Assembly: GCF_046313975.1 (NCBI RefSeq)
Contig: NZ_JBKBXB010000003.1
Location: forward strand, 57,376 to 121,375
Source of the DNA: Hyphomonas sp.
Lineage (GTDB): Bacteria > Pseudomonadota > Alphaproteobacteria > Caulobacterales > Hyphomonadaceae
Direction of reading: 5' to 3'
DNA: 64,000 nt
The notes below the pieces were generated by a model. That model did not search any database, had not been told where the DNA came from, and was given only the letters and a program-made list of their open reading frames with translations. The position numbers were made by a program, and so were the translations under genes. This document shows positions 392-58,245 of the stretch, in pieces. Within the stretch, counting starts at the first letter, position 1; each line of letters begins with the position of its first letter.

Positions 392-742
392 TCAACGCGC
401 CTTCGCCGGTACCAGATAGGCCGCACCGAATATCCCGGCCAGTAGGATCAGCACCCAGGACGAGACAGACGTGAAGTCATACACAGGTTGGTTGCGGTAA
501 ACCCAATGCAGGCCGACATGGATGACGGCAAACACGCACATGCCGTAGCGCACCGATATCCGGCGTGAGAACTCGGCATAGAACAGCATCGCCAGCACCA
601 CCGGCACATGCGCCCACAGGAAGATCTGCTGGTCAAACCCGCCGATCAGGCTGAATGTGCGGCGGCCCTGTAGAAGGATCGAATCCAGCTCATGCGTGAC
701 AAGACACGCGGCGGTCAGCCGGTAGAGGCTCTCTGATCGCAT
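392..742 (-). CDS. Small multi-pass membrane protein (DUF6713-like)
   Basis: 116 aa, several hydrophobic segments, THELD motif. Confidence 0.55.
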   Translation of the reverse strand: MRSESLYRLTAACLVTHELDSILLQGRRTFSLIGGFDQQIFLWAHVPVVLAMLFYAEFSRRISVRYGMCVFAVIHVGLHWVYRNQPVYDFTSVSSWVLILLAGIFGAAYLVPAKAR

Positions 743-805
743 TTGCGCGTCCCTCCCCAGGATACTGCGCGCATGGCCGGTAAGGAACTTTACCTAATTG
801 TGTAT

Positions 806-4169: not shown

Positions 4170-5257
4170 GCCGGCCCGGACTGGATACAAACCCCCTCGA
4201 ACTCGGCCCGGAATGGTTCAATGAGCTCTTTGCCGAGATCGGCATCGATGCTGAAGTGAAGGGGCTCACCTCCAAATCCATCGGCACCGGCCAGATCGGC
4301 GAGAATGTCCGCTTCGTGTTCGACTATGCCCGCGCCGGGGCCAATGCGCCGAAAACCCTCGTCGGCAAGTTTCCGTCCGCCAACGAAACCAGCGTCGCCA
4401 CCGCGAAGCTGCTGAATCATTACAAGCGCGAAGTGATGTTCTACCGCACTTTCCCGAAAGTCGCGGGCCGCATCACGCCCGATGCGCTGTACACGGACTA
4501 TGACCCCGAAACCAACCGCTTCGCCCTGATCATGGAAGACATGGCTCCGGCAGAGCAGGGCGACCAGCTGAAGGGCTGCGGTGTCGAAGAGGCAAAGCTC
4601 GCCATGGAAGCCGCCGCCGTGCTGCATGCCGCGCACTGGCAGGATCCCGTTCTGGATGAGCACGACTGGCTTCAGGGCTCCGCCAAGGCGCCGCCGCCCG
4701 GCCTCGGCCCGGAAATGGTCGCAGCCCTCTGGGGCGGCTTCAAGGAACGTTACGCCGCGCATATCAATGCCGACCAGATCGAAGTCGGCGACGCCTACGC
4801 CGCCAGCCTCACTAAATGGGGCGACCAGTATCAGGGCCCGTTCGCGCTCACGCATTCTGACTACCGCCTCGACAACATGCTGTTCGGCAAGCCCGGTGCC
4901 AGGAAGCCGCTCGCCGTCGTCGACTGGCAGACGGCAGGGAAGGGCGCGCCCGCCAATGATATCGCCTATTTCATCGGCGCCGGCCTCACGCGCGAGGATC
5001 GCCCGAAGCACGAGCACGCCCTCCTGCGCCACTATCACGAAGCGCTCAAAGACGAAGGCATCACGGGCTACAGCTTCGATGATCTTTACACGCACTATCG
5101 CTGGTTTGCCTTCTACGGCATCTCGGTCGCCTTTGCTGCCGCGATGATTGTCAAGCAGACGGAACGTGGCGACGAAATGTTCCTCACCATGCTGCGCCGC
5201 CACTGCGCGCAGGTGCGCGACAATGGCAGCCTCGACCTCCTGAAGGGCCTCGCCTGA
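4166..5257 (+). CDS. Phosphotransferase (APH/EcKL family)
   Basis: HSDYRLDNMLF and VVDWQ kinase motifs. Confidence 0.85.
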   Translation: MSRPGLDTNPLELGPEWFNELFAEIGIDAEVKGLTSKSIGTGQIGENVRFVFDYARAGANAPKTLVGKFPSANETSVATAKLLNHYKREVMFYRTFPKVAGRITPDALYTDYDPETNRFALIMEDMAPAEQGDQLKGCGVEEAKLAMEAAAVLHAAHWQDPVLDEHDWLQGSAKAPPPGLGPEMVAALWGGFKERYAAHINADQIEVGDAYAASLTKWGDQYQGPFALTHSDYRLDNMLFGKPGARKPLAVVDWQTAGKGAPANDIAYFIGAGLTREDRPKHEHALLRHYHEALKDEGITGYSFDDLYTHYRWFAFYGISVAFAAAMIVKQTERGDEMFLTMLRRHCAQVRDNGSLDLLKGLA

Positions 5258-17939: not shown

Positions 17940-17992
17940 AAAAGATGGTCGGAGTGAGAAGATTCGAACTTCCGGCCCCTAGCTCCCGAAGC
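17940..17992 (-). repeat. att site (displaced 3' half of tRNA-Pro)
   Basis: 51/53 identical to 58193-58245; homology stops 2 nt 5' of the anticodon loop. Confidence 0.93.
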
Positions 17993-20541: not shown

Positions 20542-20877
20542 TCAGCTCTCGCTGTCTTTGAGGCCCTGCAGCGTGGAATGCACGACGCGGCGGTGTTTCG
20601 GGTTTGATCTGAGGTGCCCGATGAGTTCGCGTTCCTCTGCTGACAGGCCGTCACCGTCGCGGATCAGGCGGCAGGGCGGAACGTCTAGGGCCTGAGCGAT
20701 TTCCAGCAGCTTCTCGACTGTCACGCCCCGTTCGCCCGTTTCATACCGTCCGATCGTCACTGGCGTCGTGTTCAGCGCTTCTGCAAGCTGCTCCTGGGTC
20801 AGGCCAGCCTTCACGCGCTCCTCGCGGATCAGCAGGTGCGTATCCGCCGAGGGTTTCGAGTAGGGCTTTCTGGGCAT
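20542..20877 (-). CDS. CI-like XRE repressor lacking an S24 peptidase domain
   Basis: 111 aa; GLTQEQLAEALNTTPVTIGRYETGER HTH; divergent from the cro-like gene. Confidence 0.88.
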   Translation of the reverse strand: MPRKPYSKPSADTHLLIREERVKAGLTQEQLAEALNTTPVTIGRYETGERGVTVEKLLEIAQALDVPPCRLIRDGDGLSAEERELIGHLRSNPKHRRVVHSTLQGLKDSES

Positions 20878-20896
20878 GCCCAATGATGGCGCAGCC

Positions 20897-21009
20897 CCCG
20901 AAAAGGTAACATTACCCAATCGGTAGAAAATAACCGGCTGCAATTGACAGTGGGGCCGAATCACCTGAGCGAAAAATACCGAAACGGTTGTTTTGTAAAC
21001 CGGAGAGGT
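20897..21009. promoter_or_regulatory. Right operator/promoter region (OR)
   Basis: ACC-N5-GGT at 20914, 20978, 20999; variant at 20897; TTGACA at 20944-20949. Confidence 0.75.
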
Positions 21010-21015
21010 TCACAG

Positions 21016-21543
21016 ATGGTGAAAAATCCACCCGAAACGGCAATGCGGCTGCGATGGTACCAGCGCCTGCGCGGCCTCGCCAGCGAGGAGCTCGGGGCAG
21101 AGCTTGCCGTAACGGGCGTGGCGGTCAGCCGGTATTTCAGTGGCGCGAGGTCTCCGCGCCGCAAGGTTTCGGATCGGCTCAAAGCCCTCACGCACGGCGT
21201 CATTCATGCGGGCAATTATGCCGAAGAGGTGACCGCCCAGGAAGCGGCCGAGATGATGGCCGAGATCGAGCGGCGGGCCGAGGCAGGGGCCTTTCTGGGT
21301 GTGGCAATCCCTGGCGGAATTATGTCGGGTTCGCCTAATGCGGCGTCGATGGTGGCGATGTCAGCTCCAGCAAGGTCAGCAGACGGACCGCAAGAGCAAT
21401 TGCCTCCTGCTGGGGCACAAAGAACTGCTGCACTGGGATCCGCTGATCCTGCGGGCCTAACTGTTCCAGGCGAAAGCCAATCCCTGGCTGACCTGCAACC
21501 GCGCCAACCCGCAGACTCACCGCGTCGGCGAGGTGCAGAATGA
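21016..21543 (+). CDS. Cro-like HTH protein with a C-terminal extension antisense to 21335-21601
   Basis: GGAGAGG RBS; SEELGAELAVTGVAVSRYFSGARSP HTH. Confidence 0.75.
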   Translation: MVKNPPETAMRLRWYQRLRGLASEELGAELAVTGVAVSRYFSGARSPRRKVSDRLKALTHGVIHAGNYAEEVTAQEAAEMMAEIERRAEAGAFLGVAIPGGIMSGSPNAASMVAMSAPARSADGPQEQLPPAGAQRTAALGSADPAGLTVPGESQSLADLQPRQPADSPRRRGAE

Positions 21544-21601
21544 CATCGCCGTTCTCATCGACAGCCCAGCCTTCGGCGTCGTTCTTAAATGGTTTTCGCA
21601 C
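21335..21601 (-). CDS. Antisense accessory protein A (88 aa), paralog of 22023-22286
   Basis: AAGGA RBS + GTG; shared K-x-[ND]-AEGW-x-x-D-[ED]-x-G, RL[ED]Q and EA-x-x-L-x-x-RL motifs. Confidence 0.7.
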   Translation of the reverse strand: MRKPFKNDAEGWAVDENGDVILHLADAVSLRVGAVAGQPGIGFRLEQLGPQDQRIPVQQFFVPQQEAIALAVRLLTLLELTSPPSTPH

Positions 21602-21647
21602 GGCAACGTTCCTTCTTCTTTGGACGGATAAGGGGATGTCAGCCTGT

Positions 21648-21669
21648 GGAGAGTCTGGCGCTGCTGCAA
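21648..21669 (-). promoter_or_regulatory. Putative promoter of cassette A with conserved 14-bp GANTC motif
   Basis: Minus strand TTGCAG...GCGCCAGACTCTCC...CAGGCT; motif starts 47 nt from the start codon. Confidence 0.55.
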
Positions 21670-21705
21670 TGCGCGGCAGCGCCAGTGCTCGCCGGGAGGC
21701 GGCGC

Positions 21706-21966
21706 ATGGCTGAGCCGGGTTTCCTGATCGCGATGGCCGTGTGCGCCTATGTGCTGCGCGGCCTTGTCGATGCCAACCGCGAGGCGGCGATCTGCCGGGC
21801 CGAGAATGAGATCACGGGCAATGCCGCGCCGGTCTGGCCCGTCTGGGCGGCCGTCACCTGCTTCTGGCCGGTGCTGGTGGCGCAGCGCCTGATCACCCGC
21901 GCGCTGATCCGCTGGGATGCGTGGAATGCCCTGCGGGCCTGCCGGAAGGAGCGCCGCAATGGCTAG
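21706..21966 (+). CDS. Small membrane protein
   Basis: GGAGG RBS; two hydrophobic segments. Confidence 0.6.
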   Translation: MAEPGFLIAMAVCAYVLRGLVDANREAAICRAENEITGNAAPVWPVWAAVTCFWPVLVAQRLITRALIRWDAWNALRACRKERRNG

Positions 21967-22240
21967 GGTCCGCTTCGCCATCCAGGATATCTGCCTCACC
22001 TTCTCGGTCTCGACCGATGCGGTCAGGGACGCGCAGGCGGTTTCTTTCGCGCCTCCTGTGCTGCCCGGATCAAACGCTGGCCGAGCTTCTGAGCCTCATT
22101 CGGCGTCAGCATCACCTGAACAGCGGTCTCCGGCCGCTGCATCACAACGTGCGCATCGGTCAGGTACTGATCGAGGCGAACCAGCACCGCGTCGGACCCC
22201 AGCGGCACGGCGTAGTAGGCGGCAAGGGGGCGAACCATGA
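21959..22240 (+). CDS. Hypothetical ORF, mostly antisense to 22023-22286
   Basis: AAGGAG RBS and overlap with upstream stop; C-terminal part looks like a shadow frame. Confidence 0.35.
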   Translation: MARVRFAIQDICLTFSVSTDAVRDAQAVSFAPPVLPGSNAGRASEPHSASASPEQRSPAAASQRAHRSGTDRGEPAPRRTPAARRSRRQGGEP

Positions 22241-22286
22241 TCTGCCCCTCATCGTCGAGGATCCAGCCCTCTGCGTTCGTTTTCAT
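22023..22286 (-). CDS. Antisense accessory protein B (87 aa), weakly BssS-like
   Basis: GGAG RBS + ATG; PLAAYYAVPLGSDAVLVRL...QVMLTPNEAQKL resembles the BssS pattern. Confidence 0.72.
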   Translation of the reverse strand: MKTNAEGWILDDEGQIMVRPLAAYYAVPLGSDAVLVRLDQYLTDAHVVMQRPETAVQVMLTPNEAQKLGQRLIRAAQEARKKPPARP

Positions 22287-22332
22287 CGCTGTGCTCCGTT
22301 TCGCGTTGGAAGTTCGTGCAACCCGAAAGTGC

Positions 22333-22355
22333 GGAGAGTCTGGCGCGGCGGTCAA
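22333..22355 (-). promoter_or_regulatory. Putative promoter of cassette B with the same 14-bp motif
   Basis: Minus strand TTGACC-gcc-GCGCCAGACTCTCC; motif starts 47 nt from the start codon. Confidence 0.55.
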
Positions 22356-22375
22356 CCGATACGAAGAGGTGCCCC

Positions 22376-22633
22376 GTGGCTGACTGGTGTGACGACTGTG
22401 CCTGGCCGGAGGCCTGCGCCCAGGCGCGCGAATGTGCACGGCGCGAGGCGGGCGAGATCCGCAGCGAAGCGCTTGCTGAAGATTGCTCGCGGCTGTCCGC
22501 CGCTGGTGCGGCGGCCGCTGCGCCTGCGCCGTCGCTTGTGGGGGCCCAGCCTGCAGGCGAGGCGCAGTTCCGGCGGCGTCCCTTTGCCGGCAGCTTCGGG
22601 CTGGGCGTTTTCATCGTGGAGACCCCCACATGA
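22376..22633 (+). CDS. Hypothetical Cys-rich phage protein
   Basis: GAGG RBS + GTG; WCDDCAWPEACAQARECA. Confidence 0.55.
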   Translation: MADWCDDCAWPEACAQARECARREAGEIRSEALAEDCSRLSAAGAAAAAPAPSLVGAQPAGEAQFRRRPFAGSFGLGVFIVETPT

Positions 22634-23277
22634 CCAAGCGCGCGACCTCCGCAAAAACCTCGATGGGCCGGGCCTCTGCGGCCGAGCGCGGGCCGGAGCT
22701 CTATGAAACCGACCCGAAGGCCGTGCGTGCACTGATGGCGCGCATGCCAGACTTCTTCGCGCCCAGGATGCGGCTCTGGGACCCGGCCTGCGGCCCTGGG
22801 GCGATCCTCGAAGTGCTGGACGAGGCAGGGTGCACGGTGCTCGGGTCTGACCTGCACGACTATGAGGCGCGCTGGCGGGCTGGCGCTCAAGTAGAGCGCC
22901 ATTGGGGCCGCGACTTTCTTGGGTGGACGCCCCGCAGCGCCGCTGAGTTGCGGCCGGATGCGATCATCATGAACCCGCCCTATTCGATGGCGGATGCGTT
23001 CGTGGATCATGCGCTCACGCTGGTGCCGCGCGTTTTCGCGCTGCTGGAGCTGCGCTGGTTGAACGGCGTCGGGCGCGAGCGCTCGCGGCTGATCGATGGC
23101 GGCCATATCCACGCGCAGCTCTCATTTGACAGACGCCTGAACATGCATCGCGATGGGTATGACGGCCCCAAGAACCGGCAGTCCCGGCTGCATGCGTGGT
23201 TCCTGTTCATGGCAGATGCACAGGCTCCAGGGTCGCCCTGGGTGTCCTACCGCCTCAACCTGCCGCTGGGAGGCTGA
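22630..23277 (+). CDS. Orphan amino-DNA methyltransferase
   Basis: Motif I WDPACGPG and motif IV MNPPY. Confidence 0.8.
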   Translation: MTKRATSAKTSMGRASAAERGPELYETDPKAVRALMARMPDFFAPRMRLWDPACGPGAILEVLDEAGCTVLGSDLHDYEARWRAGAQVERHWGRDFLGWTPRSAAELRPDAIIMNPPYSMADAFVDHALTLVPRVFALLELRWLNGVGRERSRLIDGGHIHAQLSFDRRLNMHRDGYDGPKNRQSRLHAWFLFMADAQAPGSPWVSYRLNLPLGG

Positions 23278-29766: not shown

Positions 29767-30164
29767 TGGGTACGCGTACGGAAACGATGGTGCAGCCGTT
29801 GTTGCCGGGGCTTCGTTTGCCACTGGTGACGGGCATCGATGGCGACGGGCCTGTGGTCGCAGAGAGCGCCTGCGAGGTGATCGGCTTTCGCGACCCGAAG
29901 CGGCGGTACCTGCACGCGGAAGTCCTGATCCATCAGCAGGCGGATCATCAGTGGATATGGGCCATCTGCTATGGCGCAGAAGAAAGCGGCGGCGGCTATC
30001 TGCCGGGCCCGAAATGGGGAAAGTTTGCCGCTTGCCGCGAGGATGCGCTGGTGTTTGCGCTGGATGAGCTGACCGGGCGCGTGCGGCGCGGCGCGCGGGC
30101 CACGCCGTTCGCGCGGAAGATCATCGCCTGGGCGCAGGCGAAGCGCGATGAGGTGTCGGCATGA
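29766..30164 (+). CDS. Hypothetical phage protein
   Basis: Coupled TGATG start. Confidence 0.6.
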   Translation: MGTRTETMVQPLLPGLRLPLVTGIDGDGPVVAESACEVIGFRDPKRRYLHAEVLIHQQADHQWIWAICYGAEESGGGYLPGPKWGKFAACREDALVFALDELTGRVRRGARATPFARKIIAWAQAKRDEVSA

Positions 30165-30171
30165 GCCCCGT

Positions 30172-30426
30172 TCAGGATTTCTCCGGGTCCGCCCAGCTGG
30201 CGCGGCCGTCCGTAGGGCCGGGGATTGTGATGCCGGGCGCGCGCGTAGCGCTGGGCGTGATGTCGAACGGGCCGGCGAGGCTGGCGGCGAGCTCGCGGGC
30301 GAGCGCCTTGCGGGCGGCGTCAGCGCCGTGTGGCTGGGCGAGCTCGCGCAGGCGGCTCTTGCGCGTGACGGCCAGGCGCACCGCAAGATGCGTCTCGAGG
30401 GCGGCGAGGGTTTCGGCATCGATCAT
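30172..30426 (-). CDS. Small antisense protein with LexA box; candidate antirepressor
   Basis: GGAG RBS 8 nt before ATG; opposite to the surrounding operon; LexA box abuts the RBS. Confidence 0.65.
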   Translation of the reverse strand: MIDAETLAALETHLAVRLAVTRKSRLRELAQPHGADAARKALARELAASLAGPFDITPSATRAPGITIPGPTDGRASWADPEKS

Positions 30427-30438
30427 GACTTGCGCTCC

Positions 30439-30453
30439 GTTCCGGGGATGTTC
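30439..30453. promoter_or_regulatory. LexA box GTTC-N7-GTTC
   Basis: GTTC-cggggat-GTTC, exact alphaproteobacterial consensus, in the 60-bp gap between divergent genes. Confidence 0.7.
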
Positions 30454-30486
30454 TCTTAGGCCCGAATTCCACCGGAGGGAAGGAAC

Positions 30487-30936
30487 ATGACGGAATCAGC
30501 TGTGAACGCCTATCGAACCCGGCCTGCCTGCCGCCGGGCGGGCCTGTGGGCAGGCCTGTGGATGCTTGGCGCCTGCGCCTCGCCGGGCGCCGCGGCTCAG
30601 GGCCTCCCGATGGTGCGCGACTGCGCGCCCGGCGGGTTTGTCGGCTTTCCGGAGACCGTCTGGACGGCTGAGGCGACCGCCGTGATCGATGGCGACAGTT
30701 TCTGCCTGGGTGAGGCCGAGATCCGGCTCAGGCGCTTCAATGCGCCGGAATGGGACGAGCCGGGCGGCCCGGAGGCGCGGGCCGTCCTGGCGCAGATCCT
30801 CGCCGCGCGCGGCCCGGTCACCTGCGAGGCAAAAGCCCGCCACGGCGACCGCGTGATCGCCGCCTGCACGCTGGCCGATGGGGAGAGCCTCGACGACGCG
30901 CTCCGGAATGCCGAAACGCCCCGCGACGGACCCTGA
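30487..30936 (+). CDS. Thermonuclease (SNase) family protein, probably exported
   Basis: VIDGDSF, IRLRRFNAPE; N-terminal hydrophobic stretch with LGAC lipobox. Confidence 0.8.
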   Translation: MTESAVNAYRTRPACRRAGLWAGLWMLGACASPGAAAQGLPMVRDCAPGGFVGFPETVWTAEATAVIDGDSFCLGEAEIRLRRFNAPEWDEPGGPEARAVLAQILAARGPVTCEAKARHGDRVIAACTLADGESLDDALRNAETPRDGP

Positions 30937-58192: not shown

Positions 58193-58245
58193 AAAAGATG
58201 GTCGGAGTGAGAGGATTCGAACCTCCGGCCCCTAGCTCCCGAAGC
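58193..58245 (-). repeat. att site within the intact tRNA-Pro
   Basis: Direct repeat of 17940-17992. Confidence 0.93.

Follow-up and report, generated by a model that had tools for sequence, protein, structure and literature searches.

Backward-inserted genes in a Hyphomonas prophage early operon and the stop-free antisense frames that appear to bridge them

In the early operon of a Hyphomonas prophage, two small genes, here called A and B, run against the direction of transcription, and each overlaps a long plus-strand open reading frame (ORF), the first of which is the cro-like gene that opens the operon. Do these overlaps carry any meaning, and if so, which? They might come from twin genes embedded in the operon, from a device that sets opposing transcripts against each other, or from the accidental openness of GC-rich DNA. 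We analyzed the locus within a window of 64,000 nucleotides (the whole stretch of DNA considered here; GC content ~66%) from contig NZ_JBKBXB010000003.1. The overlaps are real and appear to have been selected, as a translational bridge across genes inserted backward rather than as twin embedded genes or an interference device. The two genes are given below with their GC fractions at codon positions 1, 2, and 3 (GC123) and their Shine-Dalgarno (SD) sites.

21335-21601, minus strand: gene A, 88 amino acid residues (aa), GTG start; GC123 0.76/0.41/0.65; SD GAAGGAA.
22023-22286, minus strand: gene B, 87 aa, ATG start; GC123 0.74/0.41/0.77; SD ACGGAG.

A first-pass annotation of this DNA had proposed two minus-strand ORFs with good ribosome-binding sites, and both were found at these coordinates with SD sites 7-8 nt upstream of their start codons. 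The motifs that it had listed as common to the two products were also present in a MAFFT alignment, namely K-x-x-AEGW-x-x-D-x-x-G, RL[DE]Q, EA..L..RL, and a PP..P end. Codon-position GC was gene-like on the minus strand, low at position 2 and high at position 3, and the third-position GC (GC3) of the plus frames over A and B was just 0.42 and 0.55, respectively. BLASTP of A against B aligned the N-terminal motif alone (E = 3e-5). The similarity of the two proteins withstood shuffling: the full-length collinear alignment gave z = 7.1 (local) and 8.3 (global), and none of 2000 shuffles scored as high, although the alignment minus the N-terminus was not significant alone (z = 0.45). Gene A shares 57% identity with P0003, a related gene of another phage, and the substitutions between them number 31, 23, and 51 at codon positions 1, 2, and 3, respectively, with 29 of the 66 differing codons being synonymous. 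Because these differences concentrate at third positions and in synonymous codons, the minus frame of gene A is under purifying selection. Both A and B are already among the predicted proteins of a public protein set. These results show that A and B are genuine homologous genes.

A local duplication, as had been supposed for the pair, is not borne out. A is closer to P0003 than to B (32% identity), and B is nearest to P0008 and a chromosomal copy from Afipia (42-43%); the DNA similarity of A and B is confined to a 20-nt upstream element and the N-terminal motif. Judged by these identities, A and B look like two separate insertions or an old split. The overlaps themselves were as described, with 209 nt shared by the cro ORF (21016-21543) and gene A and 218 nt shared by the plus ORF at 21917/21959-22240 and gene B. 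The relative frame was the same at both, antisense codon position 1 lying opposite sense position 1.

How the two genes came to lie against the operon was seen by comparison with related prophages. The early operon reads cro-TM-orf85-methyltransferase, where TM denotes a small membrane-type gene, and A and B lie within the first kilobase of this rightward operon, in the following cassettes.

21290-21700 (approximate borders), minus strand: cassette A, ~400 bp, at the junction of cro and TM; absent from the G126 and G125 prophages.
21965-22381, minus strand: cassette B, 417 bp, at the junction of TM and orf85; flanked by ATGGCT (21959-21964) and GTGGCT (22376-22381).

The syntenic prophage of G126, a genome of the same genus, comprises integrase, xis, repressor, Cro, TM, orf85, methyltransferase, and the genes that come after. 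Both A and B were missing from the syntenic prophages of G126 and G125. In G126, Cro consists of 99 aa, its TGA overlaps the ATG of TM (ATGA), and the TM stop overlaps the GTG of orf85 as GTGGCTGA, with no insert at either place. Alignment of the window with G126 left cassette B as a clean 417-bp gap. On a 1-kb contig from another source (L012), an A-like cassette occupies a third junction, that of TM and the methyltransferase gene, and the 105-nt upstream region of cassette A is homologous throughout to that of the L012 cassette. In L008/L009, the family gene lies backward within an operon of small phage genes, directly after a Cro-like gene; in L010, it is also backward relative to an operon of small phage genes; and in L011, an S24 repressor gene on the same strand precedes it by 12 nt. 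The direction of A and B is that of the repressor and integrase and is opposed to the early operon. More distant prophage relatives (L045-L051) had tightly coupled early operons without backward inserts. An origin as miniature inverted-repeat transposable elements or transposon-like units was rejected, as no significant terminal inverted repeats or cassette-end similarity was found.

The comparison indicates that A and B each ride a backward-inserted cassette at a junction of a translationally coupled operon. The first-pass annotation had pictured a duplicated, lysogen-expressed cassette convergent on the early operon; the cassettes, which are self-contained, and their opposition to the operon stand, and the duplication gives way to insertions at the cro-TM and TM-orf85 junctions. 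Nor is A ancestrally embedded in cro: the G126 Cro ends at 99 aa with its stop over the next ATG, and the window Cro reads into the inserted cassette.

Neither of the plus-strand ORFs over A and B is a gene in its own right. Window Cro consists of ~97 residues homologous to the 99-aa G126 Cro and a ~75-aa read-through tail (~21307-21540) that runs antisense through gene A and whose GC123 of 0.78/0.67/0.42 is not gene-like. By this alignment, the window cro gene is the 99-aa Cro without its ATGA junction, reading ~75 codons into the reverse complement of A. The corresponding frame over B has its own start.

21959-22240, plus strand: bridging frame over B, 93 codons; start ATG (21959-21961) over the end of TM, just ahead of the TAG that stops TM (21964-21966).

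The start of this frame lies in the left copy of the duplicated junction and its stop in the conserved G-x-I-M motif of B, and the frame has a GC123 that is not gene-like and encodes a low-complexity peptide.

To count stop codons, we used the six phage-borne family genes with available DNA (A, B, P0003, P0007, P0011, and P0009), among which A and P0003 are not independent. The antisense frame with position 1 opposite position 1 was stop-free over the last 67-77 codons in all six, with one stop at the G-x-[IV]-[IM] motif. Genome-wide, this antisense frame is the least open, stops occurring at 0.031 per codon and leaving 13.6% of 70-codon windows clear, and the antisense frame that is usually open (81%) was closed in five of the six family genes. 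Neighboring phage genes in the same loci had 0.022 stops per codon in the frame, and 30.6% of their 67-codon windows were open. Synonymous-codon nulls that keep each protein (within-gene permutation, genome usage, or family usage) predicted 8.5-9.5 stops in total against 0 observed; zero was not reached in any of 5000 simulations, and multiplying the per-gene probabilities of zero stops gave ~3e-6 to 2e-5. The Afipia chromosomal copy, which lies outside any opposing operon, has six stops in the same frame, and therefore the protein sequence does not force the openness. The six antisense peptides were rich in P, A, R, and S, of low complexity, and unconserved beyond what the sense gene forces.

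The start arrangement of the open frame was tied to the upstream operon gene in all five operon-embedded loci, as follows.

A: open frame continuous with cro.
B: ATG of the open frame in ATGGCTAG, over the end and stop of TM.
L012: linked to the upstream operon gene by GTGGCTGA.
L008: linked to the upstream operon gene by TGA-A-ATG.
L010: own SD and ATG ~30 nt after the upstream stop.

The antisense frame is thus depleted of stops and coupled to upstream genes in the embedded loci. The constant relative frame reflects no interference design; it is free of stops in all six phage-borne genes and most plausibly serves as a translational bridge. Another backward gene of this prophage (30172-30426, minus strand), the third and unrelated to A and B, was fully spanned by a 109-codon plus-strand ORF (30161-30490), whose ATG lies over the upstream stop (ATGA, 30161-30164) and whose stop lies over the next ATG (ATGA, 30487-30490).

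In L012 (~597-760, minus strand), the orf85-type start GTGGCTGA persists with its coupling to the TM stop. An unrelated stretch of ~45 codons comes next (VADDHRPNMNMATPEEIAAWLKPCIG...), gene-like in GC3, and continues into the family gene's antisense; it may be a remnant or a new small gene.

Taken as a whole, we consider it fairly probable that A and B represent backward cassettes with stop-free bridging frames that protect the early operon. The early operon would rely on tight translational coupling, and an insert facing backward would leave ~400 nt of operon RNA untranslated. Ribosomes of the early operon would cross most of each cassette, either continuing onward from cro (A) or re-starting at the ATG over the TM stop (B). 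Such a bridge would prevent Rho-dependent polarity or decay of C-rich untranslated operon RNA, and the expression of the downstream early genes would thereby be preserved. The host encodes Rho, and the C/G ratio of the operon-sense RNA was 1.13-1.15 over A and B versus 0.76-0.92 in sense genes. Only cassettes with a translatable reverse strand, continuous with the upstream gene, would then be tolerated and maintained.

The prophage in which the two cassettes lie is integrated at tRNA-Pro(CGG). Integrase and xis (minus strand) and the repressor (minus strand) are followed by the rightward operon, which starts from the cro-like gene at 21016 and continues after its early genes with replication, terminase, portal, capsid, and tape measure/tail genes. 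The features concerned are listed below.

17971-58245, no strand assigned: prophage, 40.3 kb; 22-bp att repeat TCCGGCCCCTAGCTCCCGAAGC at 17971-17992 and 58224-58245, the latter copy inside the tRNA gene.
20545-20877, minus strand: cI-like helix-turn-helix (HTH) repressor, 111 aa, without S24 domain; divergent from cro; Pfam HTH_3, 6.7e-17.
21016-21543, plus strand: cro-like gene, 175 aa; weak HTH_31 match; 56% identity to G126 Cro over residues 1-81.
21706-21966, plus strand: TM, small membrane-type early gene, 86 aa; homologues in G126, G125, and L012; GC123 0.67/0.55/0.88.
22376-22633, plus strand: orf85, Cys-rich early gene; homologues in L045 and L048; GTG start coupled to the TM stop in relatives.
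22630-23277, plus strand: phage DNA N6-adenine methyltransferase with NPPY motif; phrog_799, 1.4e-37.

The repressor also matched PHROG transcriptional repressor families and was 67% identical to the G126 prophage repressor. Homologues of the methyltransferase were found after the cassette in L012 and also in L008. In the region between cI and cro (20878-21015), three palindromes of the GGTA(A/G)...T(A/T)ACC type were seen by direct reading, the first two of which are also present in the G126 prophage; these are candidate operators, distinct from the cassette element described below. Elsewhere in the genome, the 14-mer GGGCCAGACTCTCG recurs near contig ends (contig and position: C7:74, C10:23, C34:75, C39:29464, C69:7378, and C70:7244), which suggests an unassembled repeat or an insertion sequence at contig breaks.

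Upstream of A and B, the cassettes share a short element.

21645-21664, no strand assigned: 20-nt element GCGCCAGACTCTCC (given for the minus strand; contains a GANTC site), with a 13-bp hairpin at 21655-21685; ends 44 nt upstream of the A start.
22330-22349, no strand assigned: second copy of the 20-nt element; ends 44 nt upstream of the B start; no hairpin partner.

The consensus is TG[T/C]GGAGAGTCTGGCGC[T/G]GC, at exactly 44 nt from both start codons, and the two copies are 685 nt apart, which is the spacing of the start codons of A and B. A 14-mer forms the core of the element and is identical in three cassettes (A, B, and P0003), where it is preceded by a TTG-type hexamer. We rejected it as a host regulon site, since the 3.17-Mb genome contains no other exact copy. 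In A and L012, the 14-mer is the right arm of the 13-bp hairpin, which is kept in L012 with one compensatory pair change; B holds half of the CTGGCGC...GCGCCAG palindrome, and L008, L010, and L011 are without the element. The 105-nt region containing the hairpin was more stable in the operon sense (-56.9 versus -40.3 kcal/mol). Hairpins were located upstream of the family genes, not downstream. The 14-mer might serve as an operator or promoter element, or act through RNA structure.

A and B are probably expressed from their own promoters in the lysogen. This is suggested by their orientation, by the repressor-operon context in L011, and by the generalization that genes antisense to prophage lytic genes are typical accessory loci (PMC7067206). 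In L008 (~5030-5046) and L011 (~2752-2768), the family genes have as their ribosome-binding region the octamer GGAGAGTC, itself with a GANTC site; the octamer also occurs on the opposite strand within the upstream element of A, B, and P0003 (window 21648-21655 and 22333-22340). Its recurrence beside the prophage's own N6-adenine methyltransferase may be a coincidence or a methylation-linked signal.

Of the family of ~85-aa proteins to which A and B belong, eight members and one near-duplicate were found. An exhaustive HMMER search of 1.84 billion representatives with an A+B profile yielded six more proteins of 81-90 aa that aligned end to end, and a further copy was found in a metagenome-assembled genome of Afipia sp. 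(L032 4992-5246, DASWQB010000400.1). This copy is 94% identical to P0008 and lies within a chromosomal pdhC-lpdA region, between genes for a solute-binding protein and a membrane protein, with no phage genes in view; therefore, the family is not confined to phages.

Family members matched no model in Pfam or PHROG and none of the PADLOC anti-phage defence hidden Markov models (HMMs) at E <= 0.1. Against NCBIfam, seven members gave two matches far under the cut-off (15.6 versus 140 bits and 13.8 versus 50 bits). A sequence profile search of PDB returned nothing, and the Rfam match was sub-threshold only. Word-indexed homology searches with A and B singly returned only the queries themselves, tblastn found no match in 50,697 phage records, six-frame searches of 262 family genomes gave only noise-level matches, and no relatives of P0004 and P0008 were found among viral and metagenome contigs. 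AlphaFold2 with eight sequences gave a moderately confident model of gene B (predicted local distance difference test score, pLDDT, 78), in which a beta-sheet leads into a single long C-terminal helix and then a Pro-rich tail; the model from two sequences was poor (pLDDT 59). Foldseek with the model gave no match below E = 0.08 in PDB and BFVD. An AbrB/MazE-like interpretation of the N-terminal D-x-x-G-x-I-I-x-P was dropped, as there was no Pfam match and the predicted order of strands and helix differs. By these searches, A and B belong to a rare, uncharacterised family of ~85 aa without a Pfam, PHROG, NCBIfam, PADLOC, PDB, or fold match. Our best guess, by analogy with the Fc02 system described below, is that the A and B proteins are small soluble binding proteins that act in superinfection exclusion or modulate the host or an incoming phage.

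A resemblance of gene B to BssS had been noted in the first-pass annotation. HMM, hhalign, and Foldseek comparisons did not demonstrate homology. The Pfam BssS HMM PF13991 (gathering threshold 27 bits) matched neither A, B, nor any of the eight members at E <= 1, and its six-frame search of the genome at E <= 10 hit one unrelated place on contig C28 and nothing at the A and B loci. For profile comparison, we used E. coli K-12 BssS and ten enterobacterial homologues (11 sequences). In hhalign, the family aligned collinearly with this set over 59 columns (P = 0.004, score 20, probability 8% in a range of 1.7-8%). Column shuffles scored 9.8 +/- 1.8, with none of 120 reaching 20, and 5 of 136 real small proteins of the genome (~4%), used as decoys, matched the family profile as well as BssS did. 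In BFVD, Foldseek placed a phage 'BssS family' model at rank 49 (E = 1.2). The 'BssS' found in one paper (PMC8545432) is the enzyme Nb.BssSI and is irrelevant here.

Several points weigh against the protective bridge. The bridge ends 136-165 nt before the next early gene, and full coupling is not restored. Only six genes carry the stop statistic, of which two are non-independent. In L011, the frame is open though the gene is not visibly in an opposing operon, the contig ending too soon. A consensus scan recognized no sigma-70-type promoter, the sole terminator-like site lay outside the cassettes, and promoter activity of the upstream element is a guess. The homology and fold searches in Pfam, PHROG, NCBIfam, PADLOC, PDB, and BFVD gave no support for a protein function.

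It is very doubtful that the plus-strand ORFs amount to no more than the shadow ORFs common in GC-rich DNA, with overlaps and a shared frame due to unselected chance. At a GC content of ~66%, long antisense ORFs occur everywhere, the antisense peptides are not conserved, and nearly a third of the corresponding windows (30.6% at 67 codons) are open in neighboring phage genes. However, the open frame is the one most rarely open in the genome (13.6%), the usually open one (81%) is closed in five of the six genes, the protein-conditioned codon-shuffle nulls give a joint P of ~1e-5, the non-embedded Afipia copy has its six stops, and every one of the five embedded copies links the frame to the upstream gene, by continuity, by coupling, or by a start shortly beyond it. 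To the same degree we doubt true dual coding, in which the antisense frame would yield a functional polypeptide, either a C-terminal extension of Cro or a protein of ~75-93 aa, as for olg1 and gene 10 of phage Fc02. Openness of the frame is conserved, the L010 copy comes with an SD and ATG of its own, and the Fc02 precedent occupies the same genomic position (PMC9936078); the six low-complexity antisense peptides, rich in P, A, R, and S, are not conserved beyond the sense-gene constraint, however, and the N-terminal partner differs per locus, being Cro, nothing, an orf85 remnant, or a new ATG. Regulatory interference, through cassette transcription that collides or pairs with the early pR-type transcript and damps the cro-distal genes, the protein being secondary, is unlikely as the main role. 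The geometry is convergent, the two RNAs would be fully complementary over at least 209-218 nt, and parallels can be drawn with lambda P_RE reading antisense through cro, with oop RNA, and with the face-to-face pR and pL of coliphage 186. In addition, the prophage antisense RNA STnc6030 has exclusion activity (PMC7067206). An RNA-only role would not call for purifying selection on the protein or for its conservation in phages and on a chromosome, though, and related prophages do without the cassettes. Transcriptional interference by convergence may still be one effect of the arrangement.

Two further explanations concern the proteins. We regard it as quite unlikely that the product is a small DNA-binding autoregulator or switch component whose operator is the 14-20-bp element, which in A and L012 is part of the CTGGCGC...GCGCCAG palindrome. 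Three cassettes share the 14-mer unchanged, with proteins of only 32-57% identity; it follows directly on a TTG-type hexamer, the usual place of an operator, and is unique in the genome, and the L010 family gene also occupies a repressor-like divergent position. Against this, the searches revealed neither a fold nor a motif for DNA binding, the palindrome is only half present in B, and the element is absent from L008, L010, and L011. It is highly improbable that the family belongs to BssS (PF13991) as a distant branch and shares the action of that enterobacterial biofilm regulator on host physiology. The 59-column alignment was collinear and scored above 120 of 120 column shuffles, both proteins have ~85 aa with 'PL', 'RL', and 'LT..A' lined up, and the BFVD list includes the phage 'BssS family' model; the PF13991 HMM, however, found neither the eight members nor the genome loci even at E <= 1-10, the hhalign probability was 1.7-8% with small-protein decoys scoring alike, the Foldseek E was 1.2, and in the phylum sample BssS matches above the family cut-off were confined to a single family, f42. 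Family members and BssS are alike in length (81-90 versus 84 aa) and in the weak collinear profile-profile match, and differ in the lack of an HMM match or significant fold match and in taxon and genomic context.

On the wider proposal that stop-free bridging frames are a general, selected phage-genome adaptation, one that holds the reverse complement of backward accessory genes open and coupled upstream against Rho silencing, our judgement is evenly poised. Literature searches found no published description of such frames. If the proposal is true, a rare family of ~85 aa carried the constraint through its diversification, with relaxation in the chromosomal copy, and the synonymous sites of backward morons (accessory units, defined below) are shaped by translation of the opposite strand. 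'Extended' proteins such as the 175-aa Cro would be by-products, which would explain oddly long regulators, and long antisense ORFs over phage morons would not all be GC-rich noise. Annotation of backward genes and their ratios of nonsynonymous to synonymous substitution (dN/dS) would have to allow for the opposite-strand constraint. In temperate phages of Alphaproteobacteria, the family is carried on a compact cassette within the immunity and early regions, and its members are candidates for lysogeny-phase factors that serve exclusion, defence, or modulation of the switch. The loci also provide a natural experiment on backward insertions, with an empty-site relative, two filled junctions, a third in another phage, and a chromosomal control under relaxed constraint.

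Translational coupling and Rho-dependent polarity are classical in the trp, gal, and lac operons. The bridge would act alike, keeping ribosomes on the operon RNA and Rho off an untranslated C-rich stretch; the difference is that the translated stretch here is the reverse complement of another gene, whose only apparent need is the absence of stops. A moron, in the concept of Hendrix and Juhala, is an accessory transcription unit between genes that are adjacent in related phages, and the A and B cassettes fit this positional definition; comparable accessory loci expressed during lysogeny are treated in PMC7067206. They lie between genes that are adjacent, even overlapping, in related prophages, have their own ribosome-binding sites and upstream element, show lower GC3 than their neighbors, and are antisense to lytic genes. 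They differ from morons in that no promoter or terminator was recognized here and that the insertions lie exactly at the stop/start overlaps of a coupled operon; an opposite strand of the insert kept open for translation is outside the moron concept.

In lambda, P_RE reads antisense through cro, the phage also makes oop RNA, and in coliphage 186 pR and pL stand face to face. The present locus resembles these switches in that transcription in the repressor direction would run against early lytic transcription across the 3′ region of cro. Those are fixed promoter or RNA devices, whereas A and B ride optional protein-coding cassettes absent from sister prophages. The closest published system is Pseudomonas phage Fc02, in which olg1 (sie1) and olg2 lie opposite gene 10 and ner, both strands encode exclusion-active proteins, and olg1 is co-transcribed with the repressor (PMC9936078). 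As in Fc02, a small soluble lysogen-side gene lies opposite the 3′ end of the Cro/Ner analogue and the gene that follows it, and the overlap is conserved in relatives. On the other hand, the sense genes here are separate insertions with no sequence relation to olg1, and the antisense product, unconserved and of low complexity, looks like filler, unlike that of Fc02.

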